Notes: generated from the sequence alone by a model not told the origin. A stretch of 59,474 bases of DNA from an uncultured Candidatus Saccharibacteria bacterium (GCA_964563615.1 CAZLWF010000005.1:1-59474), one strand, 5' to 3'; positions 1,243 to 53,311 are shown, counted from the stretch's first letter. Program-made: numbers and translations.

Positions 1243-2307
1243 TTATATTCCTGCTTTGCGCTTCTCTATATCATTAAAGTACTCAAGCAAACATACAGCA
1301 ACAGGTACTGCTAAAATAATTCCCCAAAATCCAGCAAGCTTTGCTCCGATCAAAAGTGAAATAATAACAACGAGTGGCGAGACGCCAGTTACCTTTTTTA
1401 CAATGAGTGGAGAGAGCAAGTAGCCTTCGAATTGTTGAACAATCACATAGAAAAGCATCACCACAAAAGCAACTGAGACACCTCCGTCCAAATACGCAAA
1501 GACAATACCAGGTACCGCTGCGAGTACGACTCCAAATGGAATAAGCTCAAATATTGCCGCGACGATACCTAAAAGAAATGCATACTTGACCCCAATGAGC
1601 GCAAGTCCCAAGTACACCAACACACCGACGATCAAACCAAGCAATAGTTGCCCTTGGACCCACAAGCCAATCTTGCGTTCAGTACGCTGCCAAAGATCGA
1701 TGACATATGCTTCGTGTTTGTCTGGAATAATAATTCGAAGGAAATTTTCTACCCCACGCTCTTGGATCGATAAGTAAAATGAGACAACGACAAGTATGAT
1801 CAGATTTAAAAGACCACCAAAAAGTGCAGAGGCAGTATTCACAAATCCACCCGCAAGACCGCCGACAAATAATTGCGCTCGGGTAATTAAATCATCAAGA
1901 GAAAGATTTTGTGATATACCAGTCACTACCGCTTTGGCATCATTAACTGTTGTTGTATCTAGATTATTCAAGATGCTCCCGCTCGGTAAGTGTTTGGAAA
2001 TAAGCACAATAAAATTCGATACTTCTGCAGAGAATATCGGCAAAAATGCATAAAACAAACCTGTGAAAACTAGAAAGGTCACTAGGTAGAGCAAGATCAC
2101 TGCAAACATTCTCTGGATGCCATATTTTTTGAGCTTGCGAACGCCTGATTCTACAAATGATGCAACGACAATGGAAGTTAGAAGTACCAAGACAATATCT
2201 TTAATATAGAAAAGCATTAAGACAAACAGTACAAAAACTACTGTCTGTAAAATAGTTTTTTGGCTGATATGTATGGTCATTTCTGATTTTCCATTTCCCT
2301 CTTGCAT
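1243..2307 (-). CDS. AI-2E family (PerM/YhhT-like) transporter
   Basis: 354 aa multi-pass membrane protein with FELIPFG, QQFEGYLLSPLI, VSPLVVIISLLIG and GIILAVP motifs. Confidence 0.85.
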   Translation of the reverse strand: MQEGNGKSEMTIHISQKTILQTVVFVLFVLMLFYIKDIVLVLLTSIVVASFVESGVRKLKKYGIQRMFAVILLYLVTFLVFTGLFYAFLPIFSAEVSNFIVLISKHLPSGSILNNLDTTTVNDAKAVVTGISQNLSLDDLITRAQLFVGGLAGGFVNTASALFGGLLNLIILVVVSFYLSIQERGVENFLRIIIPDKHEAYVIDLWQRTERKIGLWVQGQLLLGLIVGVLVYLGLALIGVKYAFLLGIVAAIFELIPFGVVLAAVPGIVFAYLDGGVSVAFVVMLFYVIVQQFEGYLLSPLIVKKVTGVSPLVVIISLLIGAKLAGFWGIILAVPVAVCLLEYFNDIEKRKAGI

Positions 2308-14457: not shown

Positions 14458-14700
14458 ATGGATCTCTCATCACTCGGGCACACTATCCTTCTTACTATCA
14501 CCAATATTCACCATTTAACTATTGGTTTTTGGATTTTAGTTGCCTTGGTTGTTTTTATTTCCTTTATTTTGATCTCCAATTTCCGTTCATACGGCGAGAA
14601 TTATTTAATTGGTTTTATATTCTATGCGCTCTATGGTTTTGGAGTATTTACCTTACTCACTAATATTTACAACCAGCTCCATATTATTGCTTCATTATGA
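14458..14700 (+). CDS. Small membrane protein
   Basis: 80 aa and hydrophobic. Start chosen at MDLSS because TGTTACAAT lies 6 nt upstream; the longer ORF-track start falls inside the T-box. Confidence 0.65.
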   Translation: MDLSSLGHTILLTITNIHHLTIGFWILVALVVFISFILISNFRSYGENYLIGFIFYALYGFGVFTLLTNIYNQLHIIASL

Positions 14701-15227
14701 CGTTACACAAAGATGAAACTAAAATAGCAGTCTACCGCAGACACTGGTTTTATTTTGTCACAGAAACACTCCTCTTTGGATTGCTTGCTGTTTTCCCTCT
14801 TGTTGCAGGCACCATACTGCCGACCTACATACCTTTCGAAATTCCAGCATATCTGTCAGTTTTATTTCATTTCCTTTATACACTCTGGCTTTTATTTGTC
14901 TGGATAACCTTTTTTATTTCCTACACGAATTATATTCTCGACCTTTGGATTTTGACTTCAGAAAGACTCGTCAATGTTGAGCAAATCGGTATATTCTCAC
15001 GTGAGGTTTCAACTTTGCAGATTGAGAAAGTTCAAGACATCACTGTCACACGAAGTGGCCTACTCGATGAACTCTTAGGCACAGGTAGCCTCCTCGTCGA
15101 AAGTGCTGGTGCTGATAAAAAGTTCTTCATGTCAAAAATCGCTAATGCCGAACGCGTCAAAGAGCACATTCTGAAAATCGTAGAAGCTAAAACTCATGAA
15201 GTAAAAACCGTACGAATCGAAAAATAG
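14697..15227 (+). CDS. PH-domain (bPH_2-like) membrane protein
   Basis: Two TM helices, then WILTSERLVNVEQIGIFSREVSTLQIEKVQDITV...GTGSLLVESAG. Confidence 0.75.
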   Translation: MTLHKDETKIAVYRRHWFYFVTETLLFGLLAVFPLVAGTILPTYIPFEIPAYLSVLFHFLYTLWLLFVWITFFISYTNYILDLWILTSERLVNVEQIGIFSREVSTLQIEKVQDITVTRSGLLDELLGTGSLLVESAGADKKFFMSKIANAERVKEHILKIVEAKTHEVKTVRIEK

Positions 15228-40914: not shown

Positions 40915-41691
40915 TTATGAAAATCTAGCAAGTATGGCTGCTATCCATGCATGCCACTCAACTGGCTCACCGCCATGATCAACTTCATCTCGCTCTTTAA
41001 CAGATTGCAAATAATAATCTATCATTGACGGATCAATAGTAATGCCAGGATAAGGCTCTTGGGACGCTGGCACTCGATTAACAACTTTTTGCACCAATGT
41101 CTTAAGTCTAATATCTGCCAATCCATATTTTTGAAGCATAATGGTCTGCACCTCTGGATCACCAACCTTAAATACTTCGTAAACTATCTTGTCGTAATTG
41201 CCAAATTGACCAATAGTAGGATCAATGTACATAAATCTGTTGTCAAAGTAGATTTCAAGCCATGCATGATCAACCATATGTTGGTCTTTTTTACTTTCTT
41301 GATTCTGAAAAGCAAAGCTGAATCGCTCAACTATTTCATGTGTATTGCCGTGATAGGTAGCACCAATCGGAAGCTCATTATCAAAAAATTTTTGATTAAG
41401 TACTTTTGCAAGTGCATAACTTGACGGGCCACACCCCCACGATGGGACATTATTTTCTTCTGCTAGTGCTGTCACAGTCGTAATAAATTGAGGTGAAATA
41501 CTATCCAGATACTCTCCAATTTCTATGATTTTTTTATCATCATCGCTTTGCCAAAAAATAATAGGGGTATTTTGGGTTCTAGCTGTATATATCTGCCAGC
41601 TAAGTTGACCAAGAGTAAGCAGCAGTGCAATACTAGCAATATAGAAAGTTACCCCAACCTTTCTGTTCATTTTTATTGTTTGGTTTTCCAT
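40915..41691 (-). CDS. Membrane-anchored transglutaminase-like (Cys-His-Asp) protein
   Basis: TM anchor, WGCGPSS and DHAWLE...YIDPT. Start set at MENQTI. Confidence 0.65.
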   Translation of the reverse strand: MENQTIKMNRKVGVTFYIASIALLLTLGQLSWQIYTARTQNTPIIFWQSDDDKKIIEIGEYLDSISPQFITTVTALAEENNVPSWGCGPSSYALAKVLNQKFFDNELPIGATYHGNTHEIVERFSFAFQNQESKKDQHMVDHAWLEIYFDNRFMYIDPTIGQFGNYDKIVYEVFKVGDPEVQTIMLQKYGLADIRLKTLVQKVVNRVPASQEPYPGITIDPSMIDYYLQSVKERDEVDHGGEPVEWHAWIAAILARFS

Positions 41692-41729
41692 ACAGATCAC
41701 TCAATAGCCAAATGTCGTGTCTATAGTAA

Positions 41730-41975
41730 CTAATTATCCTTCTTGTCTCCTTGCTGTGGTGTTGTGTGTACATGGATAACAGTTTCATCTCGAGATGCTG
41801 GGATAATAAGAATTGAGATGCCATATGCAATAAGTCCAGGGATGAGACCTGTCACAAATGACAGAAAAAGAAATATCACTCGAATAAGTACTGGATCTAT
41901 TTCAAAATATTCTCCTACGCCACCACAAATGCCACTTACTACTCGATTTGTCTCACTTCGGTAAAGTCTTTTCAT
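41730..41975 (-). CDS. PspC domain protein
   Basis: KRLYRSETNRVVSGICGGVGEYFEIDPVLIRV. Confidence 0.92.
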   Translation of the reverse strand: MKRLYRSETNRVVSGICGGVGEYFEIDPVLIRVIFLFLSFVTGLIPGLIAYGISILIIPASRDETVIHVHTTPQQGDKKDN

Positions 41976-42007
41976 GTGAGTAGTATAGCAAGTAACAAGT
42001 TGCCTTA

Positions 42008-42043
42008 CTAATTAAAAAATACCCGAAGGTATTTTTTAATTAG
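42008..42043 (-). terminator. Intrinsic terminator
   Basis: ctaattaaaaaatacc-cgaa-ggtattttttaattag inverted repeat. Confidence 0.7.
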
Positions 42044-42045
42044 TC

Positions 42046-44523
42046 TTATAATTTTGGACATGTTTCTTGAGCCCAGGTGGTGTAGAGACCTTGTGTTATC
42101 TTACCCCATAGACCATCCACTTTAGTTCCGAGAATCGTCTGGGCTGTTTTAATACCAGTCAAGGATTTTGGACCAATAATACCGTCCGTCACTAGCTGAG
42201 GTGTAGCTGCATCTAGCTGATTAACAGCCTTTTGTACCACTTTTGCGTCTTCACCTTTGAGTCCAATCTTAACCAATACATTAGGTGTCCCAACAATTTC
42301 ACATCCGAGAGTATAGCCACTAGGATCTATTTCATTATCATCGACGGTGCTTGTACAACCCGGATCACTTGGATAATCCATCTTGCCATCTCCATCATTG
42401 TCTTGCCCATCACTGCAACTATACGAAATATAGTTGCCGCCTGAACCTAATGGAGGAGCCGGAGTATCTTCGACTATAACTTCTTCATCAGACTCGTCAT
42501 CATCGCTTGCAGTTGTACAGCCCGGATCATTCTCATCCGAAAGACTATCTCCGTCATTATCAACACCATCTCCACACTGATAGGTTACTGTATTTCCGGT
42601 TGTAAAGGTTTGGTCAGGAGAACTTACTGTATTACTGCTTTCATCAGTTGATATGATCGACGCATGGTAGAGCGTACCCGGAGTTAGGTCGTGCAATGTA
42701 ACAGAGTGACTTGTAACTCGTGGCAGTGTATCACTTGTCCCAGTCGTTAATCCATAACCCGTTGTGGTGCCATAATTAACGAGCGTCGAAGCTAATTCGT
42801 CAGTTGTCCAAGTTATTACTGCTGTTGTATCTGTTGGAGAAATAGTAATGCTCGATAATACTGGATCTATAGTATCTGGGGCATCCGGCGTCACTTCTGT
42901 ATAACTAAAGCCTGATGAACAGCCAGAGACATTGCCAGAACTATCAGTTGCTGTTGATCGGAATGTTGTTGTTGAATTGTCTGCAACTGAGACAGTGAGA
43001 CCTGGGGAGGCAAATTTATTTGATGTGCCTGAAATAATAACACTTCCAGCACATGTGCTATCTGCGTATATTTTTACTGTTGTACCGCTTGGTGCTGTTC
43101 CTTTTAGTTTAGGGCTGTTATTGTTAGAACCAGAAATTGGATTAGAAGAGCTTATTGTTGGGGTTACTGGTAAAACAACAGCGAGAGTGGTAAAGAAATT
43201 ATCCGACGAAGCTCCAATATTCCCTGCTGCATCTTTTGATTTTACAGAAAAATGATACAGCGTATTTGCAGCTAGTCCGGTTATCGTCACGCTATGGTTA
43301 GTCACTTTCGGTGAAATATTTGTTTCACTTGTCGAATTAGTGTACGAAGTCGTTGTCCCGTAATCAACACTTGATGAAGATGCTTCGTTGGTAGTCCAGG
43401 TAATAGTTGCCGTCGTTTGTGTAGGCGTAACCCCTATCGAAGAGATTACAGGATCAGTAGCATCCGGCGTCACTTCTGTATAACTAAAGCCTGATGAACA
43501 GCCAGAGACATTGCCAGAACTATCAGTTGCTGTTGATCGGAATGTTGTTGTTGAATTGTCTGCAACTGAGACAGTGAGACCTGGGGAGGCAAAGGCTGCC
43601 GCAGTTCCTGAAGCAACTGGACTTCCACTACAGCTAACTGTTGTATAAAGTGCAACAGTCGTACCCGCATCAGCAGAGCCTAATAGCTTTGGACTATTGT
43701 TGTTTGACCCGGAAATTGGATTCGATGAAGTGATAGCTGGTGTAGCTGGAAGAATAACAACAGCTGTGTCTGTTGTAAATGTATTATCTGAAGAAGTACC
43801 TGTATTACCACTTGCATCTTTTGATTTCACATCAAAATGGTAAGCCGTATTTTGTGTAAGACCAGTTATCGTAACTGAGTGTTGAGTTACCATAGGCAAT
43901 ACATCCTCCTCAGTCGTTGTGCCATATGAAATAGTGCGACCATACTCGACGATTGAAGATGCATCTTCATTAGTACTCCACGTTATGGTTGCCGATGTTT
44001 CTCCTGGATTGACTGCAATTGAGGAAATGATTGGAGCACTTGTATCTGGAACAATAACATCCGTTATAACAACAGTAATCGGATCACTTTGCTCTGATGT
44101 ATTACCACTTCCATCAGTTGCAGAAACTGCAAATTTATAGGTACCAGCGGTAAGACCACTGATTGTAGCTGTATTTGTTGTAACCGTTGCTACGATATTA
44201 CTTGTCTTTTCATTTATATTTTGCGTTGCATTCGGGGTAAGGGCACTCTTGATACTGCTACCAAAATCAACAATACTATTAACAACAGTTGAGAATGTAC
44301 TTTCTTGTTTTGGCACTGGGGTTGGTGTAGGTGTCTCTGGCTCTGATTGAGTAGGTCTTTGGCGTGGAGTATCAGTTACTCTTGGTTCAGATGTATCAAT
44401 AACTCTAGCAACGCCGGTAAAATTTTGGTTACTGTGGGTCAAAACAAAATAACCACCACCAAGTATAACGGCCAAAAGTAAAAGTACTTTTACTGCGTTG
44501 TAGTTCGGATTAGAGAAATTCAT
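42046..44523 (-). CDS. Surface protein with FN3/Ig-like repeats, two Cys/Asp-rich motifs and a C-terminal peptidoglycan-binding domain
   Basis: N-terminal TM helix, ATITWxTNE..SS.V.YG repeats and CxDGxDNDGD..xxDPGC twice. The PG_binding_1-like end reads GEDAKVVQKAVN...DGIIGPKS...VDGLWG. Confidence 0.85.
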   Translation of the reverse strand: MNFSNPNYNAVKVLLLLAVILGGGYFVLTHSNQNFTGVARVIDTSEPRVTDTPRQRPTQSEPETPTPTPVPKQESTFSTVVNSIVDFGSSIKSALTPNATQNINEKTSNIVATVTTNTATISGLTAGTYKFAVSATDGSGNTSEQSDPITVVITDVIVPDTSAPIISSIAVNPGETSATITWSTNEDASSIVEYGRTISYGTTTEEDVLPMVTQHSVTITGLTQNTAYHFDVKSKDASGNTGTSSDNTFTTDTAVVILPATPAITSSNPISGSNNNSPKLLGSADAGTTVALYTTVSCSGSPVASGTAAAFASPGLTVSVADNSTTTFRSTATDSSGNVSGCSSGFSYTEVTPDATDPVISSIGVTPTQTTATITWTTNEASSSSVDYGTTTSYTNSTSETNISPKVTNHSVTITGLAANTLYHFSVKSKDAAGNIGASSDNFFTTLAVVLPVTPTISSSNPISGSNNNSPKLKGTAPSGTTVKIYADSTCAGSVIISGTSNKFASPGLTVSVADNSTTTFRSTATDSSGNVSGCSSGFSYTEVTPDAPDTIDPVLSSITISPTDTTAVITWTTDELASTLVNYGTTTGYGLTTGTSDTLPRVTSHSVTLHDLTPGTLYHASIISTDESSNTVSSPDQTFTTGNTVTYQCGDGVDNDGDSLSDENDPGCTTASDDDESDEEVIVEDTPAPPLGSGGNYISYSCSDGQDNDGDGKMDYPSDPGCTSTVDDNEIDPSGYTLGCEIVGTPNVLVKIGLKGEDAKVVQKAVNQLDAATPQLVTDGIIGPKSLTGIKTAQTILGTKVDGLWGKITQGLYTTWAQETCPKL
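42881..43593. repeat. Perfect 134-bp intragenic direct repeat
   Basis: 42881-43014 is identical to 43460-43593 by base-by-base reading. Confidence 0.92.
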
Positions 44524-44595
44524 ATTGGTTTTAATTTTACCATACTAATACAATTAAGTTAAACACTAATCTATATACATAATGTTTCCTTCTGG

Positions 44596-47493
44596 TTAAT
44601 TCAAAATTTTTGCAATATTGCTATAATTTTGCGGACAGCCACCCACAATAACATCTGTATATAGTTTAGCGAAAATATCTGGAATAATTTCATCTGCATG
44701 ACCTACTTTATGACCTGTGCCAGGCCAATGGGTAAACGTAGATGGGATAACAGCCATAATCTGGTCAAAAGCACTTTTAACTGATGTGTATTCAAGCGTA
44801 TGGTCATCTTCACCATGATAATCATGCATTGGTCCATCATTTACATCAAGAAACGTATTTAGCATGGTCATCGTTACACCGCCCGGATGTCCAGCTGCAG
44901 AACAAATCCATGAAGGTTCATTCATATTACTCAAGCTCACTCTTGCATCGCTTGTAATCGCCGCATTATTCATATTGTTACCTAGCATGTCAGCTGTAAA
45001 TGAGGTAAGGCCACCTGCTGAGGTACCGGTTGCGACAATGCGGTTTTTATCAAAATTATAAACTCCTGCATTCGCGCGGGCCCATCGTACCGCAGCCGCA
45101 AGATCTGTACCTGCCAAAATTTGATTAGCATTATTAAAATTGCCACCGCCTTCACCTCGATAGTTTATCGATGCACATGCCCAGCCCCGCATAGTGAAAT
45201 CTTTACACCACCCACTATCAGCTTTATCTCCTCCGCCACCATGAAGATTAAACGCAAGTGGCAATCGTTCATTAGATTCATTTGGTGGTAAATATAAATC
45301 TAGAAATAGTTCTGTATTATCACCGTCTGGCGCAGTTGCATATTGATAGGTATTTTTTGATACTTCTGAAAAAGCAAAAATCTCATTGCAGTAGCGTAGC
45401 GTTCCCGTATCATTACCATTGCTCGTAACGCAATTTGTCCCGCCGCCCACGGTACTACCTGACTCATCCTCCCCTTCAATCTGATACACCGTATACTCTG
45501 CGACATTACCACTATCATCAGTTGATGCATCCCACGAGAGAGTGGCTGATGAGGGTGTTGTTGATTGGGTGGCAAGATTAGTTGGGATAGATGGTGGAGT
45601 GGTGTCATCGGCAAGTGTAGCAAGACCAAGTCCTTCAATTTTTGTTATAGAATATTTTGCCAATGAAACACAGTCTGTTCCTGTTGCTTGTGATTCACCG
45701 ATCATGCAAGATGTTATCGGTGTAATTTGATCAAATAGGTTATCAGTAACCATGAGATCCATATTTTCAGCATCAGGATTTCTGTCATCCCCTATACCGT
45801 AGGTTGAAGAAAGTGATTCTCCTTTTATCCAAGAAACTGACAGAGTTGCCTGAGGATCACTAATTGCCTCTCCGTTTATTTCGATCGTCGAAAGTGGCAC
45901 CACTCGATCAGACCAGTTTATAAAATAATATGTTTTTTCACTCGTGAGAATATCCTCGAAACCATAGACTTGGAATTGCCCTTGTGGGACACCACTTACA
46001 GTTGATTGGAGATCAATTACTTTTTGATGCCCTGAGAAAACATCTTTAATGAGTTTGTACGTCAATCCAGAAACATAGAGCTTTAGTGGCGCTGAATCAT
46101 AACTGCCCGTACTGTTATACACTTCATTATCAGGGATTTGCTGGTCTTTAGTTGCGGGATTAATGCTTTTGGCAACTTTTTGCTTTCCTAGAACATGACT
46201 TGAATATCCTCCCAAATTCGTACTCGAAGCACTTGCAATAATGTTGTCATGCGTATGGTTAAATTGTGCAAGTTTGAACAGATACTCAGCCTCAAATGCA
46301 GCGTTGGCTATAGTATTATTGAATGCAGCAGCGGTAAAATTAGATGTCAATTGACTTTGATCGTAATTGTTGATTTCTTTTTGCGTAACTCTAAATTTAT
46401 GATTACCAAAATAGCTTGTATAGCTCGTAAGTGCAGCTTGCATTTTGCCATCTAAAAATTCTCGACTCTTATCACGGAAGCAGTCAAATATATCTATACC
46501 AGGATGTTGCGATGGATCACAGACATTATCATAATCCACCAAATCATCACCATTTAAGTAGGTGCCATACTCAATATTTACTATATCGCTAAAACCAATT
46601 TTACAATTTGGATCAGAACTTGTTGAGTCCCCTTTAATACACTTATTCCAACTCGAACTTGCACCGTAGTCTTGTGCATCTTTTTTAGGCTTCTTCACGT
46701 GAATCTGAATTTTCAAATCTGGCATGTTATGAGTTTGAGCCCAAGCTTGTATTGCCAAAGCAAGAGGATGAACGCGTGCCACAAAGTGACTTGCACTTGT
46801 AAATGCTTGCACTCCTTGTGTTGTCGACGGAGCTTCAACACTACACTCTGAGCAAAGCTGCACACCTTCAAGTACAACACCTGGATGGTTGCTACGTATG
46901 TCATTAAGCAGTGCAATATTTTCATCAATCATTTTCTGTATACTTCCTGGATCAGTTGGGATTGGTGCGGTGAGCGGCATACCATCAGCTACTTGTGTAA
47001 CAACATTCAACGAATAAGTCGCTACTGGTCGGCGCATGTGTGGAATAACATTCAAGAACTTATCGTGAAAACGAGCGATGTTAGTATACTTGGTTGTATA
47101 GTTTTGTTCAGTTTCTTTTGTGCCATCGCCGTTCCAAAAGTCAGTTTCATTGGCACGAAATCCTTCTCCCCACCCGTCGAAATGTGCATAGTTGGCATTT
47201 ACTCCTGGTAGATAACGGAGCATATTGAGCCCTGTGTCATTTAATGCATTAAAAAAATCCTGGTTTTCAACGTTATAAAAACTATCAATCTGATTATCGA
47301 GGCCAGAAGACAGTAGTGACGGCAAGACTGCACCATCGTAAATTAGACCACCAATGTCAATTGTTTGTGCACCATTAAAATTAGTCCTACGTACTATATT
47401 GAAAACTATAAAAATTCCAAGCACAATAATAACAAGTATTAATAGGAGAATTTTGACAACATTGTACTCTGGTTTTCTTAAAAAATTAAACAT
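44596..47493 (-). CDS. Surface protein with a clan-A-like glycoside hydrolase barrel, FN3 and an alpha/beta esterase
   Basis: TM anchor, LRYLPG...LCSE barrel motifs and a DTTPPSIPTNL...LSWDASTD FN3. The esterase shows LHGGGG, GTSAGG, HGEDD and GH. Confidence 0.75.
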   Translation of the reverse strand: MFNFLRKPEYNVVKILLLILVIIVLGIFIVFNIVRRTNFNGAQTIDIGGLIYDGAVLPSLLSSGLDNQIDSFYNVENQDFFNALNDTGLNMLRYLPGVNANYAHFDGWGEGFRANETDFWNGDGTKETEQNYTTKYTNIARFHDKFLNVIPHMRRPVATYSLNVVTQVADGMPLTAPIPTDPGSIQKMIDENIALLNDIRSNHPGVVLEGVQLCSECSVEAPSTTQGVQAFTSASHFVARVHPLALAIQAWAQTHNMPDLKIQIHVKKPKKDAQDYGASSSWNKCIKGDSTSSDPNCKIGFSDIVNIEYGTYLNGDDLVDYDNVCDPSQHPGIDIFDCFRDKSREFLDGKMQAALTSYTSYFGNHKFRVTQKEINNYDQSQLTSNFTAAAFNNTIANAAFEAEYLFKLAQFNHTHDNIIASASSTNLGGYSSHVLGKQKVAKSINPATKDQQIPDNEVYNSTGSYDSAPLKLYVSGLTYKLIKDVFSGHQKVIDLQSTVSGVPQGQFQVYGFEDILTSEKTYYFINWSDRVVPLSTIEINGEAISDPQATLSVSWIKGESLSSTYGIGDDRNPDAENMDLMVTDNLFDQITPITSCMIGESQATGTDCVSLAKYSITKIEGLGLATLADDTTPPSIPTNLATQSTTPSSATLSWDASTDDSGNVAEYTVYQIEGEDESGSTVGGGTNCVTSNGNDTGTLRYCNEIFAFSEVSKNTYQYATAPDGDNTELFLDLYLPPNESNERLPLAFNLHGGGGDKADSGWCKDFTMRGWACASINYRGEGGGNFNNANQILAGTDLAAAVRWARANAGVYNFDKNRIVATGTSAGGLTSFTADMLGNNMNNAAITSDARVSLSNMNEPSWICSAAGHPGGVTMTMLNTFLDVNDGPMHDYHGEDDHTLEYTSVKSAFDQIMAVIPSTFTHWPGTGHKVGHADEIIPDIFAKLYTDVIVGGCPQNYSNIAKILN

Positions 47494-47546
47494 GTATAAA
47501 TAGTATACCAGCTTCTTATCTTTTTTTGCTATACAGGTACATCCTG

Positions 47547-50534
47547 TTAGTCAGCAATGTGTGTAAGATTGCTATAACTTTGCGGGCAGCTTTCACCAAT
47601 TAGCTCATTATAGGCTCTAGGGATAACAATTTTATCTATTGCATCATCTTCTCCGAGACCATGACCTGAATCATCAAAACATTGGAAGTAACTTGGAATA
47701 CCGAAGCTTTGCATAATGCCAAGTGCCTCATCACCATCATCATTTTGTGCATCATCTGGATCTGAACAGTGCCAACCATGAGTCGTGTCTTCACCACCTA
47801 GGAAAAAGACGGACGGCGGATCATTAGCATCAATATAATTATACGCAAACGGCGCAAGTGGCCCAGATGTACTTGTTACCATGCAGCTCCACGATGGAAC
47901 AATACCCCCACTTTGATATGTTTGATTATCTCTGTTAACCAGCGTATCGCTTGATGGGTAAAATGATGCATCATTGGCAGTGGTCGCAGCAAGCATAGAA
48001 GTAATACCTCCAGCAGAAGTACCTGCCAATATTATTTTGTTGGGATCTATACCATAGTCAGTCGCATGTAGTCGTGCAAATCTAATTAACGCTAGCATAT
48101 CTGAAGCCGCATGTTTTTGCTCTGACATGGTAAAACCCATATTTGTGTGGTCAGTTCGATAATCACCAGAGATACAGACATACCCTAGTCGAGCTGCTTC
48201 ATTACATGGAGCTGCCCCTCCTTCAGATTCACCGCCACCGCCATGCATAAATATTTTAAGTGGACGATTTCTTGCTGTATCTGAAAGTGGCGGTGTGTAG
48301 AGATCAAACGCCAAATCATACGTGCTTGAAAATTCTATACCGGCAGTACCTAAGGCAACCGAAGGCTCTGGAATCTCTGACTGAGTGAAGATCTCATTAC
48401 AGTAGCGAAGCTCACCCGGAGTACCCGCAACATCTGGATCACAAACTGGAATTTCTTCCTCTTCTCCCCCGTCATCAGTAATCTGATACACCGTATACTC
48501 TGCGACATTACCACTATCATCAGTTGATGCATCCCATGAGAGGACAGCTGACGTTGGAGTTGTTGATTGCACGACAAGATTACTAGGAACAGATGGTGGA
48601 GTAGTGTCGGCAGGCAGAGCTACCATTTGATTTGGATCAAAGACAAAGTAACCAAAGGAATACGCTGGTATATAGAGGCTGCCAAGTGTTGTGTCGACAT
48701 CTTTATAAACAACTGCAGTTTCATTTGCATCGATATACCCATCAGTTTTTAGATTTGTATTACCTCTGCCTGCATAGAGATGATCTCCAGCTATATACGC
48801 ATAGGTAATTGGTGTCTCAATATTTATAGGTTCATTATTTACAACAAATGGCGCAGTATCTCCAACTTGTCTTAATCCAAGTGAAACTCCTGAAAGGTTC
48901 GTAACATAGACAAAATATTTTCCGTCTTCTCCTCTGTATGCATCTACTCGTAAATAAGGATTGGTGTCATCAGAAATAATATCTGTATCGTTTGATGTAC
49001 TGACTGAGGCATCAACGTATGATGCATTATTTTCAACAATAGTATTCATAAACTGTATTGGCCAATAAGTCATCCGACGAACTGCATCATCTTTATGCGT
49101 ACCTGCAGCAACCACATCGGTAACGGTATTATTTATTTCATCCCAATCGCCCACACTATCAACAAAACCTTCAGGTCCATCGAGTGTACCAATCGGACCA
49201 AATAGATTTGTACTAATTGCATGAATATCAGCTACAGGCACAGTGCCAGGATGTGCTGCATTATAAGCATTAATTGTATTCAAAAATCCACCAACGAATA
49301 TTGCCTGAAGTAGAGTGTTTGAATACAGTCCTTCCGTTGGTGTCGTTTTTATTTCAGTATTGTACTCAGTAAAGAGAATCTCTTTGCCTGGCATAAGCGC
49401 CTGATAATACTCAATAGTATCAATAACTAATTCATTATCATTGATGGCATGGGAAGCTCGAGCGCAATCCATCAAAGCATCAATACCCCCCAAAGTACCA
49501 CAGACCTGACTACCCGAAGAACCTGAGGGTGGATATGCTACGGGAGGGTAGTAATGAGTCGTAATCGCATCTGCAGTTAAAGTTCCATTTTGCATAGCAT
49601 TCGCGAGGCCATTATTCCAATTCTTGTAACTAATATTATTATTGAGGCCTACCTTCCAGTAAGGCGCTGCATTGGCAGCAATGACAATTGATGGATCAAA
49701 ATCACGGATAGCTTGCGCATATGGTTCGACGCGTGCGACATAATCAGCAACTTTGTATAAACCATTTGTACAACCAGTGTCGCAATACCATGCATTGTCT
49801 GCTTGTATATAATGTTCTTCACCAAGTTCGACATACTTTACATCTACACCGAGTGCCTTGAGGCGACCAAGTGCAGAAAGCACATCGCTGACTGTGCCCG
49901 TTGAAGGATTAATGGTAAACATATTCGTTGCATCAATGCGCGTAGCCATTGGTGCAAAATCTTCCAGATAATTATGTCCAATTGTTGTTTGATTCTGATA
50001 GGTGCCTTGACTGACATCTTCAGCATATGAATTATCTGGACTGTATATGAACATTTGACATGGCCAATGCCCATTGCCGTGGTTCAATGCCCCAAGCGGC
50101 ATAGCAAAAATAGGATCACCAGACAGATCGTGGAGCGACGGGCATGATTTGTACTGATCAGGCACAACGGCATCAATTGGATGAAAAAAATTTGCTTCAG
50201 CTCCAGGCATGCGGTAGTTAGTAAATCCTGCTGCGTCAAGAAACGCATTTAGCGTTTCATCATGAAAATCCATCGTATCAAATATTGCTTCCAAATTAAC
50301 ACCGAGTAAATCTGACTCAACCGGTGCATGTACAACATCTGTGATTGCAATCGTTATTGACTCTTCAGCTGTGGCGTCTCCCCAGGGGTAGACGAAGTCA
50401 ATAACTTGCGCTCCGTTAAAGTTATACCTAAGACTTGTATTAAAAACCACAAAAACTCCAAGTGCAATAATCGCAACTATGAGAAAAAAGAGTTTAACGA
50501 CATCGTATTGAGGATTTCGTAGAAAATAAAACAT
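47547..50534 (-). CDS. Surface protein with a clan-A-like glycoside hydrolase (GH51/GH79-like), FN3 and an alpha/beta esterase
   Basis: YRMPG, VKYVELGEE, ITTHYY and LFTEYN, then an FN3 domain. The esterase shows MHGGGG, GTSAGG, GGED and SGH. Confidence 0.8.
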   Translation of the reverse strand: MFYFLRNPQYDVVKLFFLIVAIIALGVFVVFNTSLRYNFNGAQVIDFVYPWGDATAEESITIAITDVVHAPVESDLLGVNLEAIFDTMDFHDETLNAFLDAAGFTNYRMPGAEANFFHPIDAVVPDQYKSCPSLHDLSGDPIFAMPLGALNHGNGHWPCQMFIYSPDNSYAEDVSQGTYQNQTTIGHNYLEDFAPMATRIDATNMFTINPSTGTVSDVLSALGRLKALGVDVKYVELGEEHYIQADNAWYCDTGCTNGLYKVADYVARVEPYAQAIRDFDPSIVIAANAAPYWKVGLNNNISYKNWNNGLANAMQNGTLTADAITTHYYPPVAYPPSGSSGSQVCGTLGGIDALMDCARASHAINDNELVIDTIEYYQALMPGKEILFTEYNTEIKTTPTEGLYSNTLLQAIFVGGFLNTINAYNAAHPGTVPVADIHAISTNLFGPIGTLDGPEGFVDSVGDWDEINNTVTDVVAAGTHKDDAVRRMTYWPIQFMNTIVENNASYVDASVSTSNDTDIISDDTNPYLRVDAYRGEDGKYFVYVTNLSGVSLGLRQVGDTAPFVVNNEPINIETPITYAYIAGDHLYAGRGNTNLKTDGYIDANETAVVYKDVDTTLGSLYIPAYSFGYFVFDPNQMVALPADTTPPSVPSNLVVQSTTPTSAVLSWDASTDDSGNVAEYTVYQITDDGGEEEEIPVCDPDVAGTPGELRYCNEIFTQSEIPEPSVALGTAGIEFSSTYDLAFDLYTPPLSDTARNRPLKIFMHGGGGESEGGAAPCNEAARLGYVCISGDYRTDHTNMGFTMSEQKHAASDMLALIRFARLHATDYGIDPNKIILAGTSAGGITSMLAATTANDASFYPSSDTLVNRDNQTYQSGGIVPSWSCMVTSTSGPLAPFAYNYIDANDPPSVFFLGGEDTTHGWHCSDPDDAQNDDGDEALGIMQSFGIPSYFQCFDDSGHGLGEDDAIDKIVIPRAYNELIGESCPQSYSNLTHIAD

Positions 50535-50597
50535 TGTAGCTAATTGTATAGTAGCAAATTAGAAAATCACAAGCAAAAACAACCTACGATGCATAGC

Positions 50598-52096: not shown

Positions 52097-53311
52097 ATGC
52101 ATAAATATTCAAAAAACTTTTCTATAGTATTTTCTTTTCTCGTAGTAGTACTTACGCTTTTTGGTGTATCACAAGCCAGCTTTGCGGCAACAACCCAAGT
52201 AAAACCATTTGAAGTCACTGGCTGGATTCCCTACTGGAGTGTGACTGCAGGCACAACCGTAGCAAATAAAAATTTAACTACTTTAACCTCGATATTTCCT
52301 TTCGGCTACGGCGTCAATACTGATGGCACCCTTACTGATCTCGCCAAACTCGCTACATCACCGACGTGGGCAAGTCTCAAGACTAGTGCTAATGCTAAAC
52401 AAGTAAAATTTATTCCGACGATCACCTGGACAGACGGTACAGCGATCAATCAAATACTCTCTGATAAAACCCTTCGTACCAAACATGTCGACACTATTGT
52501 CGCTATGGTTGAAAATGGCAAATTTGATGGCGTCGATATTGACTATGAGAAAAAACTTGCAGTAACGAAAGACAACTTCTCTATGTTTCTAACGGAGCTC
52601 AAAGCAAAGCTCGGCAGTAAAACTCTCGTCTGCTCGATCGAAGCTCGCACACCACTTGCATCGTTATATCGTGTCATTCCGACAAACATCCAGTATGCCA
52701 ATGACTACAAAGCTATCGGCAAAGCATGCGATAGAGTCGTCATACTCGCCTATGATCAAGGCCGTGCAGATTTCGTCTTGAATAATACCAAAGCTGGTGC
52801 ACCGTATAATCCCATCGCTGATGTTGAGTGGGTAAGAAAAGTAGCAACACTTGCATCTGAATCAATCCCAAAAGAGAAAATCCTCCTCGGTATTCCGACC
52901 TATGGATTTAACTATGAAGTAACGATCGCACCGAACTGGTTCAAGAGTTACAAAAAGGTCTCTTCTGCTACCGCTTCATATGCCACCCAAACTGCGACAC
53001 TCTTTGGTATCACTCCTACGCGCAATAAATCAGGCGAGATGAGCTACTCATTTGCCACTGGATCCACACCCAAAGAAGTCGCAACCTACAAACTACCAAG
53101 TACACTCACGAGTGATACATTTGCCAACCGAGCACTCGCCTATGCTAATGCTACCGGCAAAACGTTTACCTTCAACACTGTCTGGTGGAGCGACGCTGAT
53201 GCTATCAAGCAGAAAGTAACTCTCGCTAAAGAGTTAGGTCTCGCAGGCATTTCCCTATTTAAAATAGATGGCAATGAAGATCCAAATATCTGGGCGATGC
53301 TTGCCAAATAA
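52097..53311 (+). CDS. Secreted GH18 glycoside hydrolase (chitinase/spore-cortex-lytic-like)
   Basis: Signal peptide, intact FDGVDIDYE (DxxDxDxE), LAYD, LGIPTYG and WWSD...KVTLAKELGLAGI. Confidence 0.88.
   Translation: MHKYSKNFSIVFSFLVVVLTLFGVSQASFAATTQVKPFEVTGWIPYWSVTAGTTVANKNLTTLTSIFPFGYGVNTDGTLTDLAKLATSPTWASLKTSANAKQVKFIPTITWTDGTAINQILSDKTLRTKHVDTIVAMVENGKFDGVDIDYEKKLAVTKDNFSMFLTELKAKLGSKTLVCSIEARTPLASLYRVIPTNIQYANDYKAIGKACDRVVILAYDQGRADFVLNNTKAGAPYNPIADVEWVRKVATLASESIPKEKILLGIPTYGFNYEVTIAPNWFKSYKKVSSATASYATQTATLFGITPTRNKSGEMSYSFATGSTPKEVATYKLPSTLTSDTFANRALAYANATGKTFTFNTVWWSDADAIKQKVTLAKELGLAGISLFKIDGNEDPNIWAMLAK

Follow-up and report, generated by a model that had tools for sequence, protein, structure and literature searches.

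A conserved N-terminal leader reused on unrelated extracytoplasmic proteins in one family of Nomurabacteria-type CPR bacteria

The window, the whole stretch of 59,474 nucleotides analysed here, comes from the ~645-kb genome of an uncultured CPR bacterium of the Nomurabacteria type and carries three tandem genes whose products share, as judged by sequence comparison, a genuine N-terminal membrane-targeting module of ~45 residues that is reused on unrelated proteins. This leader has no counterpart among the Pfam and NCBIfam models and is apparently undescribed. We propose, with moderate confidence, that it is a family-specific modular export leader of the signal-anchor class, which would enter the membrane through the general Sec pathway and remain uncleaved.

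Domain organization of the three window genes

The three tandem open reading frames (ORFs) lie where the original prediction had placed them, and the N-termini quoted there are correct letter for letter. Their similarity is far beyond chance: a leader hidden Markov model (HMM) run on the six-frame ORFs of the source genome returns the window trio at E = 1e-21 to 1e-26, and a broader leader profile, applied per genome, returns it at 1e-15 to 1e-17. The features, in window coordinates, are as follows.

50543..50572, minus strand: promoter-like TTGTGA-18-TACAAT of the 995-aa gene, its end 8 nt before the ATG
47547..50534, minus strand: 995-aa ORF (ORF listing)
50397..50534, minus strand: leader of the 995-aa protein, residues 1-46, MFYFLRNPQYDVVK, apolar helix to G-V-F, then NTSLRYNFNGAQVID; leader profile E 1.5e-17
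48615..50396, minus strand: N-domain of the 995-aa protein, residues ~47-640, distantly paralogous to the GH-like barrel of the 965-aa protein
47550..48614, minus strand: FN3 module and BD-FAE-type alpha/beta-hydrolase esterase of the 995-aa protein, residues ~641-995 (Pfam, PDB)
47502-47507: -10-like TATACT of the 965-aa gene, 8 nt before the ATG
44596..47493, minus strand: 965-aa ORF (ORF listing)
47356..47493, minus strand: leader of the 965-aa protein, residues 1-46, MFNFLRKPEYNVVK, apolar helix to G-I-F, then NIVRRTNFNGAQTID; leader profile E 4.0e-16
45604..47355, minus strand: GH-like N-domain of the 965-aa protein, residues 47-630, predicted (beta/alpha)8 barrel with a C-terminal beta-sandwich
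44599..45603, minus strand: FN3 module and BD-FAE esterase of the 965-aa protein, residues ~631-965 (Pfam, PDB esterases)
44534-44562: promoter-like TTAACT-17-TAAAAT of the 825-aa gene, its end 10 nt before the ATG
42046..44523, minus strand: 825-aa ORF (ORF listing)
44395..44523, minus strand: leader of the 825-aa protein, residues 1-43, MNFSNPNYNAVK, apolar helix to G-Y-F, then VLTHSNQNFTGVARVID; leader profile E 3.3e-15
42049..44394, minus strand: passenger of the 825-aa protein (Pfam and NCBIfam)
42007..42044, unstranded: terminator-like AT-rich hairpin with a 17-bp stem and a T-rich tail, directly past the stop codon of the 825-aa gene

The C-domains of the 965- and 995-aa proteins are predicted to be BD-FAE (PF20434) alpha/beta-hydrolase esterases. 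Specifically, Pfam places fn3 at residues 636-685 and BD-FAE at 731-841 (63 bits) of the 965-aa protein, and fn3 at 649-686 and BD-FAE at 744-866 (54 bits) of the 995-aa protein, the BD-FAE cut-off being 26.8. The esterase part of the latter also matches PDB esterases at E 2.7e-8, and both sequences contain the G-T-S-A-G-G serine motif, in agreement with the G-x-S-x-G pattern of a nucleophile elbow. The esterase named in the original prediction is thereby confirmed, while the glycoside hydrolase (GH) named with it lacks sequence support in Pfam and PDB and stands at the level of fold. The N-domain of the 965-aa protein belongs to no sequence family in Pfam or among PDB sequences. Its AlphaFold2 model (pTM 0.72, mean pLDDT 66) displays an alternating strand-helix pattern followed by a beta-rich C-terminal part, and the alternation is read as a TIM barrel; in a Foldseek comparison with the PDB, the best matches of this model are GH51, GH44 and GH30 enzymes (E 6e-8 to 1e-5, TM 0.33-0.44). 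The hallmark of clan GH-A is a (beta/alpha)8 barrel with two catalytic Glu residues on strands 4 and 7. The N-domain of the 995-aa protein likewise finds no sequence match in Pfam or PDB and is linked to the GH-like domain of the 965-aa protein through a paralogue at C22:488-2188. In the sister genome, the orthologue of the 995-aa protein is only 389 aa long, the whole GH-like block being absent and the leader abutting FN3 directly, which marks a module boundary.

The 825-aa passenger consists of a Pro/Thr-rich linker, three FN3/Pur_ac_phosph_N-type modules with Ig-like spacers, and acidic double-disulfide repeats. The FN3 assignment made for this protein is sound, and the peptidoglycan-binding module proposed with it is a weak PG_binding_1-like match at the C-terminus (residues ~757-810; E 0.004, with a score of 17.7 bits where the cut-off is 23).

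Sequence, distribution and passengers of the leader

Across the family, the leader consensus is M-N-F-F-K-N-P-x-Y-N-S-I-K, 16 apolar residues to G-Y-F, a polar spacer of 12-13 residues, and [Q/N]-x-[G/A]-x-V-[I/V]-[N/D]. As predicted, conserved residues stand on both sides of the helix, with ~15 highly informative positions in all, but the outer motif first given as N-F-x-G is local to the genus, and its family-wide form is [Q/N]-x-[G/A]-x-V-[I/V/F]-[N/D]. Of 122 proteins, 96 have 12-13 residues between G-x-F and [G/A]-x-V, and G-x-F and the small-residue pattern of the helix are invariant. With 16-20 residues, the apolar stretch is intermediate between the h-region of a signal peptide and a transmembrane helix. 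All but one of 59 leaders (58) have Lys or Arg directly in front of the helix, the sequence at this point being S-[I/L]-K, and the helix contains no Glu. The net charge of the N flank (+0.88) exceeds that of the C flank (+0.56), a weak bias, so that the assigned topology rests on the nature of the passengers. AlphaFold2, run on the leader alignment, predicts a helix over residues 3-6, a break at N-P, a helix over residues 8-39 and a coil over GAQVID (mean pLDDT 85), the helix reaching pLDDT 88-97 across residues 1-30.

Six copies of the leader occur in the source genome, namely the window trio and three more on contigs C1, C11 and C4; the string GQSGKVID near the C-terminus of a lipoprotein (C4:64704) was discarded as chance level (domain E 2.8). 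Among 61 relatives, 24 carry the leader, on ORFs of 47-1227 aa, and within the family the profile matches 47 of 251 genomes and 23 of 45 genera, with 1-10 copies per genome. The motif is therefore clearly not confined to the three window paralogues. Outside the family, a sample of 300 genomes and 221 genera from the rest of the class gave no full-length leader match, only weak matches to the helix part. At this sampling of genomes, the full-length leader does not extend beyond a single family of CPR bacteria of the Nomurabacteria type. In a library of 1.84e9 proteins, 255 protein clusters match the leader at E <= 1e-3, and the match starts at residue 8 or earlier in 141 of the 150 best global matches.

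The proteins behind the leader are unrelated to one another and extracytoplasmic. The median length is 171 aa, and 144 passengers fall into 73 BLAST clusters; in passengers Pfam finds PG_binding_1 (clear in other leader proteins, unlike the weak match of the 825-aa protein), fn3, Kelch, BD-FAE, NHL, SpaA-like domains, or nothing. At least two Cys are present in 91 of 97 small passengers, in even number in 89 of those, and a further apolar segment was found in only 2 of 150 passengers (none in the other 148). These paired cysteines, the wall-binding, FN3 and hydrolase domains, and the scarcity of further apolar segments place the passengers outside the cytoplasm. Leader proteins whose passengers are unrelated have no other segment in common. 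The original view of a reusable, apparently undescribed N-terminal signal thus holds on unrelated extracytoplasmic passengers in many genera.

It is highly improbable that the leader has no special function and is simply the inherited N-terminus of one paralogous family expanding by local duplication, conserved through recency or gene conversion. Such an origin would agree with the frequent tandem arrangement of leader genes (the window trio; G026:C7, G068:C18 and G062:C9) and with the esterase or FN3 modules shared by four of the six passengers of the source genome. It does not fit the 73 unrelated passenger clusters with their several different folds, nor proteins that have nothing but the leader in common, nor the conservation of the leader across 23 genera while synonymous sites vary. 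At conserved leader positions, all four Pro codons, all four Gly codons and both Tyr codons are used. This synonymous variation means that the leader is conserved at the protein level and not at the DNA level, and it rules out an RNA- or DNA-level element such as a leaderless-mRNA signal.

Relation to known export signals and possible cleavage

When five leaders were compared with all of Pfam-A and NCBIfam at E <= 10, only sub-threshold matches to unrelated helix-only families were obtained, and full-length Pfam and NCBIfam scans of leader proteins revealed no N-terminal family. The curated models of special signals, YSIRK/GXXS (PF04650/TIGR01168), KxYKxGKxW (TIGR03715), ESPR (PF13018) and SipW-cognate (TIGR04088), were all unmatched. 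The statement that the leader has no AxA, lipobox or G|F prepilin site was confirmed by sequence reading and HMM scans. Signal peptides cut by signal peptidase I have small uncharged residues at -3 and -1, a few residues after an apolar core of 7-15 residues. On a crude rule-based reading, the leader contains no such AxA site, its sole conserved candidate breaking the -3 rule and lying 12-13 residues past the helix. Ordinary AxA signal peptides are present in the same genome (TFA|A, AYA|I, AHA|I and similar; one on an esterase paralogue), which together with the missing AxA site argues that the leader is not a standard cleaved signal. No leader column holds a conserved Cys as in a lipobox L-x-x-C (15 Cys across 150 leaders, at no fixed position), and no R-R in the n-region, as in the twin-arginine motif S/T-R-R-x-F-L-K, or Tat model match points to a Tat signal. 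A type IV prepilin signal would require Gly at -1 before the apolar segment and Glu at +5, neither of which is found, and no pilin or N_methyl model of Pfam or NCBIfam matches at E <= 10; canonical G-F-T-L-I-E pilins are present elsewhere in the source genome.

A close analogy in behaviour is offered by the YSIRK/GXXS signals of staphylococcal and streptococcal surface proteins (PF04650; PMC5962339, PMC11841062), which are likewise lineage-restricted and have a strongly conserved motif towards their N-terminus. As with the leader, only a subset of surface proteins, otherwise unrelated, bears the motif, plain signals serving the remaining exported proteins of the cell. YSIRK signals work through the general Sec machinery with no dedicated translocase, matching the absence of a co-occurring gene for the leader. 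However, the two share no sequence or HMM similarity. YSIRK signals are cut by signal peptidase at a normal AxA site and the protein is then anchored by sortase at its C-terminus, whereas the leader has no AxA site and its passengers no C-terminal anchor; moreover, only in the leader does a further conserved motif follow beyond the membrane, at a constant distance from it. SipW-cognate signals of the TasA/camelysin type resemble the leader in being conserved beyond the apolar core as well, where a short extracytoplasmic motif (small, x, hydrophobic, x, D/N) surrounds the processing site. Yet TIGR04088 does not match the leader, the motif spacing differs, the cytoplasmic N-P-x-Y cap has no SipW counterpart, and no second, archaeal-type signal peptidase tracks the leader, 58 of the 61 relatives having a single S26 gene.

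A less probable reading is that the leader is exported by Sec and cut at [Q/N]-x-[G/A]|x-V-[I/V]-[N/D], a SipW-type or propeptide-like processing site, so that the passenger is released; the candidate cutter would be the single signal peptidase I or a universally present envelope protease. The would-be -1 position is G or A in 118 of 122 proteins (97%) at a tight spacing of 12-13 residues from the membrane, which is what a processing site would look like and speaks against an anchor, and the motif is the sole conserved extracytoplasmic element on otherwise unrelated passengers. The -3 position, by contrast, is N, Q, E or D in ~75%, while the genome's ordinary signals obey the -3/-1 rule, and a site 12-13 residues past the helix lies beyond the usual length of a c-region. 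Hydrolases and small disulfide-rich proteins, both common among secreted proteins and often released, make up many of the passengers, which again weighs against an anchor. Additionally, leader-negative relatives put similar domains behind ordinary cleaved AxA signal peptides, indicating that the leader takes the signal peptide's place. On the other hand, no extra S26 paralogue tracks the leader, no rhomboid passes the cut-off in the 61 relatives, and a cleavage site would leave the conserved cytoplasmic cap unexplained. Leader-only ORFs of 45-56 aa also exist, two of them tandem and of equal length, and such length-conserved ORFs would be pointless if the leader were discarded.

The predicted organization, a single N-terminal helix with the bulk of the protein outside, is that of a type II signal anchor. 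Generic anchors of this type are abundant in the source genome and resemble the leader in the single N-terminal helix, the Lys just before it, the extracytoplasmic passenger, the lack of an AxA site and, in many uncleaved examples, the G-(G)-Y-F helix end. Plain anchors, however, have no conserved flanks, whereas the leader has its ~15 informative positions and travels as a unit among unrelated passengers.

Candidate partners and the proposed membrane tether

No dedicated partner gene has been found for the leader, and the claim of a dedicated export signal is so far unsupported, since signal peptidase, rhomboid, pseudopilins and neighbouring genes all fail to track it. Sorting systems such as exosortase/PEP-CTERM, rhombosortase/GlyGly-CTERM and sortase/LPXTG pair the signal with an enzyme gene of matching distribution, and the candidates followed here show no such pairing. 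Presence and absence of genes were screened by tblastn in leader-positive genomes (the source genome G000, G010 and G029) against leader-negative ones (G017 and G101). Because one genome was 85% sampled and the source genome is 86% complete, a partner could have been missed; the power of this comparison is limited, and it is blind to any partner that all genomes possess. It left a pseudopilin-like gene trio (C1:56748-60650), a 176-aa membrane protein of bPH-like type (14697-15227 in the window), two secreted proteins and a methyltransferase. Across 61 genomes, the pseudopilin protein was ruled out by its occurrence in many leader-negative families and its absence from several leader-positive genera, and the bPH-like protein by the same mismatch.

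Signal peptidase I (PF10502, S26) is encoded in all 61 relatives, once in 58 and twice in three, and an extra copy as the dedicated enzyme was ruled out, all three two-copy genomes being leader-negative. A rhomboid protease, suggested by the likeness of the G-Y-F helix end to a rhomboid recognition pattern, was also ruled out by genome scans: no relative of the 61 has a match above the Pfam cut-off (one lies below it), whereas the model finds matches in all 14 control genomes. Next to the window trio, a 261-aa membrane protein (40915-41700), suspected to be transglutaminase-like but without a Pfam match, is missing in G010 and in as much of G029 as was sampled, and a PspC-like 81-aa gene that follows the FN3 protein in two genera is absent from G010; both were rejected. 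No conserved neighbour accompanies the leader genes, which elsewhere sit among unrelated housekeeping genes. The composition of the linker past the motif was too weak to discriminate anchoring from release (S/T/P/G/A/Q/N 61% versus 57%).

An assembly role for the leader has also to be weighed. Sulfolobus sugar-binding proteins (the "bindosome") reuse class III, prepilin-type signal peptides on non-pilin substrates, and there, as with the leader, one conserved N-terminal hydrophobic module mounts many ectodomains on the cell surface. The leader differs in having no [K/R]-G|hydrophobic site, no Glu+5, no pilin HMM match and no link to pilus genes. It seems quite improbable that helix and outer motif join these proteins to each other or to a common membrane scaffold, as in a pilin- or bindosome-like display of varied heads. 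The pilin-like dimensions (median 171 aa, head domains with paired cysteines), the leader-only mini-proteins, the tandem arrays and the invariant G-x-F and small-residue helix pattern are compatible with it, as is a preprint (PMC13278184) in which structure predictions lead to the proposal that a CPR protein anchored in the membrane tethers a pilus through insertion of its N-terminal strand. Against it stand the missing prepilin site and pilin or N_methyl matches, a pseudopilin trio that does not co-occur with the leader, the absence of a linked assembly ATPase or chaperone, the unlikelihood of 1000-aa enzymes as filament subunits, and the presence of the G-Y-F helix end on the genome's generic anchors.

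We therefore favour, at the moderate confidence given above, the modular signal anchor. The cap F-F-K-N-P-x-Y-N-S-I-K, of 12-13 residues, would lie at the inner membrane face and the 16-residue apolar helix to G-Y-F would span the membrane; the helix would run on outside for ~10 polar residues, usually through a conserved Arg, until the non-helical [Q/N]-x-[G/A]-x-V-[I/V]-[N/D] motif ends it 12-13 residues off the membrane. Nearly any ectodomain could follow, including enzymes, FN3/Ig stalks, wall-binding modules and small disulfide-bonded domains. Since no lineage-matched translocase or peptidase was found, we infer N-in insertion by the general SRP/Sec/YidC route, and the leader most likely persists uncleaved, as a membrane tether of type II. 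Topology is probably fixed by the two conserved flanks, a job that, given the weak charge bias, would fall to the cap, and the outer flank may in addition attach the stalk to some ubiquitous component of the envelope. On this signal-anchor reading, the window trio would be three membrane-tethered surface proteins, namely an FN3/wall-binding stalk and two enzymes that combine a GH-like domain with an esterase, and each gene would have a promoter of its own.

A bolder reading, which we consider rather doubtful, is that the tripartite leader is a new protein-sorting signal of monoderm CPR bacteria, read by a universal or highly divergent envelope factor that either cuts at G|x-V, releasing small disulfide-rich effectors and enzymes, or docks the stalk to the wall to present exchangeable, host-facing heads; leader-only 45-aa ORFs would then be competitors, regulators or precursors of peptide signals.

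CPR bacteria (Patescibacteria) are mostly uncultured and presumably live attached to other cells, and most of their surface proteins lack annotation. The leader adds an example to the few lineage-specific export-signal motifs, such as the YSIRK, KxYKxGKxW and SipW types, and is unusual among them in its conserved element outside the membrane at a fixed distance. It deserves a family model of its own, the proteins that bear it being labelled at present as plain hypothetical membrane proteins. A 45-residue profile serves as a sequence tag for the exported repertoire of one large family, comprising at least 255 clusters, most without a known domain, and the leader set is a short list in which to look for factors of attachment, for enzymes that degrade walls or glycans, and for small proteins that are secreted or tethered.

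Genes of the trio and their products

The three consecutive ORFs of the trio (ORF listing) have exactly the limits of the original prediction, and their shared N-termini read as it had quoted them:

42046..44523, minus strand, 825-aa ORF; -10-like TG-n-TAAAAT at site 44534-44562, minus strand
44596..47493, minus strand, 965-aa ORF; -10-like TATACT at 47502-47507, minus strand
47547..50534, minus strand, 995-aa ORF; -10-like TACAAT at site 50543-50572, minus strand

In all three genes, the -10-like hexamer lies 8-11 nt upstream of the ATG and no ribosome-binding site (Shine-Dalgarno) is found upstream, which supports the annotated start codons; judged from sequence, each gene is consistent with leaderless transcription on its own. 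A hairpin with a T-rich tail lies directly 3' of the 825-aa gene.

The 825-aa protein contains three FN3/purple-acid-phosphatase-N-type modules and acidic double-disulfide repeats; of the FN3 and PG-binding parts predicted for it, the former is clear and the latter weak, with the PG_binding_1-like C-terminus scoring 17.7 bits, under the cut-off. The 965-aa and 995-aa proteins both end in an FN3 module and a BD-FAE alpha/beta-hydrolase (63 and 54 bits, Pfam) with the nucleophile motif G-T-S-A-G-G, which bears out their predicted esterases. The GH predicted beside each esterase holds at fold level only, because the N-domains of ~590 residues have no sequence-level match and the neighbours come from Foldseek. 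Specifically, the AlphaFold2 model of the 965-aa N-domain (pTM 0.72) shows an alternating strand-helix pattern followed by a beta-rich C-terminal part and is read as a putative (beta/alpha)8 barrel, with GH51, GH44 and GH30 as best PDB neighbours (E ~1e-7, modest TM-scores). The N-domains of the two proteins, otherwise dissimilar by BLAST, are bridged by a 566-aa GH-like barrel paralogue (C22:488-2188, minus strand), whose plain N-terminal anchor lacks the motifs of the leader.

Other genes near the trio are as follows:

40915-41700, minus strand, 261-aa protein with an N-terminal helix and the strings C-G-P-S-S, D-H-A-W and I-D-P-T
41730-41975, minus strand, small PspC-domain membrane protein
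52097-53311, plus strand, secreted GH18 (chitinase-like) protein whose signal peptide is canonical (SFA|ATT), just upstream of the trio locus

The strings of the 261-aa protein resemble a Cys-His-Asp (transglutaminase/papain-like) core; the protein has no Pfam match and is found only within the same genus. The PspC-domain gene, also present at 8906-9127 of the relative's locus L024, comes immediately after the gene for the FN3/wall-binding leader protein in two genera (G000/G004 and G029) and is absent from G010. The GH18 protein, together with the GH-like/esterase pair, suggests a glycan-degrading neighbourhood.

Anatomy and distribution of the leader

In the leader alignment, per-column information gives the consensus M-N-F-[F/W/L]-K-N-P-[Q/E]-Y-[N/D]-S-[I/L]-K for the putative cytoplasmic cap, followed by 16 apolar residues ending G-[Y/W/F]-F (G and F each in 57 of 59 leaders), a polar N/S-rich spacer, often with Arg, and the terminal outside motif [Q/N]-x-[G/A]-x-V-[I/V/F]-[N/D]. 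Of 122 proteins, 96 separate G-x-F from [G/A]-x-V by 12 or 13 residues, and 117 keep this spacing within 10-14. Every synonymous codon is in use where Pro, Gly and Tyr are conserved, so selection acts on the leader peptide and not on RNA. AlphaFold2 run on the alignment predicts, at mean pLDDT 85, residues 3-6 as a short helix, then an N-P break, a long helix at 8-39 that crosses the membrane and extends ~10 residues beyond, and a non-helical conserved end. Because the two sides of the helix show only a weak charge bias (+0.88 inside versus +0.56 outside), topological information may reside in the aromatic/Pro cap and in the invariant Lys that precedes the helix.

Scanning all six-frame ORFs of G000, the genome (645 kb, 29 contigs) whose contig C5 is the window, by regex and HMM located the leader on three further proteins:

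C1:52943-54769, 608 aa, FN3 and an unknown domain
C11:2300-3346, 348 aa, esterase only
C4:62087-63271, ~390 aa, esterase

The leader profile matches 24 of 61 genomes (60 relatives searched), nearly all of the same family, in ORFs of 47 to 1227 aa. With a broader profile rebuilt from 59 leaders, 47 of 251 genomes of the family carry the leader (23 of 45 genera; 1-10 copies per genome), while 300 genomes from 221 genera in the rest of the class give no full-length match and three weak helix-only matches. Among 1.84 billion representative proteins, 255 match at E <= 1e-3 and 52 at E <= 1e-10; in the best 150, the leader starts at or before residue 8 in 141, and lengths run from 45 to 1143 aa (median 171). 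The leader is thus not private to the trio.

Five leaders scanned against all Pfam-A and NCBIfam models (E <= 10) gave only sub-threshold matches to unrelated single-helix families, and none to the YSIRK, KxYKxGKxW, ESPR, SipW-cognate, Tat or pilin N-methyl models. The leader sequences contain no twin arginine and, as predicted, neither a lipobox Cys nor a pilin-type G|F-x-x-x-E; G000 also has canonical pilins and AxA signals. The helix end G-(G)-Y-F is common to many plain N-terminal anchors of this genome, so that the leader resembles a specialised form of the signal anchors of this lineage. In function, its closest counterpart is the YSIRK/GXXS class, in which some surface proteins share a lineage-specific motif within their export signals and use the general Sec system (PMC5962339, PMC11841062). 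Unlike that class, the leader has another sequence, lacks an AxA site and bears a second conserved motif outside the membrane. We found no description of the leader in the literature; the one related publication, a preprint, describes a CPR pilus system with components that carry ordinary signal peptides (PMC13278184).

Passengers and modularity

The 144 post-leader segments fall into 73 single-linkage BLAST clusters, with PG_binding_1, fn3, Kelch, BD-FAE, NHL, SpaA-like, Big_7 and peptidase M64 as Pfam domains; most leader proteins have no Pfam match, and the leader itself is never matched. At least two cysteines occur in 91 of 97 small passengers, in even number in 89 of those, and only 2 of 150 leader proteins have a second apolar segment. 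Together with the Pfam and BLAST diversity, these features mark the passengers as extracytoplasmic and single-pass, with unrelated structures. The leader acts as a modular unit. In the sister-genome orthologue of the 995-aa protein (389 aa), the leader runs at '...AQVID' straight into the FN3-esterase part, with the GH-like domain missing entirely. That plain paralogy explains the shared leader is hardly credible.

A BD-FAE esterase paralogue of G000 (C1:88140-88919, plus strand, truncated at the end of the contig) has, in place of the leader, an ordinary signal peptide (MKKDITYSLAILVCVFTLTLPGIIHA|KGK), so this genome makes one enzyme type with two export signals. Additionally, leader-only ORFs occur in tandem in L051, a relative's locus (G026:C7:22500-25000):

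1733-1870, minus strand, leader-only 45-aa ORF
1915-2052, minus strand, leader-only 45-aa ORF

Both stop three residues past the outside motif (...AGQTAGKSILNSK, ...AGQTAGKAIMNSR) and adjoin leader proteins of 90 and 107 aa. Leader-only proteins of 45-56 aa are also among the library matches (P0073, P0087, P0108, P0118 and P0007). Such ORFs may encode small membrane proteins or peptide precursors.

Candidate partner genes and proposed membrane retention

The original prediction of a dedicated export, processing or display signal so far finds no support in a co-occurring peptidase or transporter gene. An S26 signal peptidase gene is present in all 61 relatives, in single copy in 58; the three genomes with two copies are all leader-negative, which discards an extra signal peptidase as partner. 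Rhomboid (PF01694) exceeds the Pfam cut-off in none of the 61 relatives, all members of this order, and the model was found in 14 of 14 control genomes; its absence looks like lineage-wide loss. We also screened for G000 proteins common to leader-positive genomes only (G010, complete, and G029, 85%, versus leader-negative G017 and G101; assembled from 20-kb pieces). Besides leader proteins, the screen retained a pseudopilin-like trio, a bPH-like membrane protein, a methyltransferase and two secreted proteins; across the 61 relatives, neither the pseudopilin protein nor the bPH-like protein tracks the leader. Leader genes share no conserved neighbourhood beyond genus-level synteny. Within the limited power of the screen, the leader has no dedicated peptidase or transporter.

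The pseudopilin-like trio (604, 198 and 496 aa; C1:56748-60650, minus strand) lies downstream of pilB/pilC in G000 and is patchy, occurring in 18 of 61 relatives from several families and missing from many genomes in which PilB and PilC are retained. That the leader serves in assembly, in the manner of a pilin or bindosome, is improbable.

Cleavage at the outside motif is a possible but doubtful alternative. In its favour, the G/A is near-invariant and would suit position -1 of signal peptidase I, the motif keeps a fixed distance from the membrane, the passengers resemble secreted proteins, and in two leader-negative genomes of the family similar domains follow canonical AxA signal peptides. 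Against it, roughly three in four cases have N/Q/E/D at position -3, and the helix ends 12-13 residues before the site, which thus lacks a proper signal peptidase I motif. That favours retention, as do the resemblance to plain anchors, the conservation of a cytoplasmic segment that a cleavage site leaves unexplained, and the leader-only ORFs, including the two tandem equal-length copies in G026.

We therefore lean, with belief and doubt about balanced, to the leader being an uncleaved type II membrane tether that uses the general Sec route. Most likely, the general SRP/Sec/YidC route would insert it N-in, and it would remain in the membrane as the tether. Conservation of the cap, of the rigid outside helix and of the motif at its end would reflect their part in fixing orientation and placing the ectodomain or, alternatively, in docking the ectodomain to a ubiquitous envelope component.
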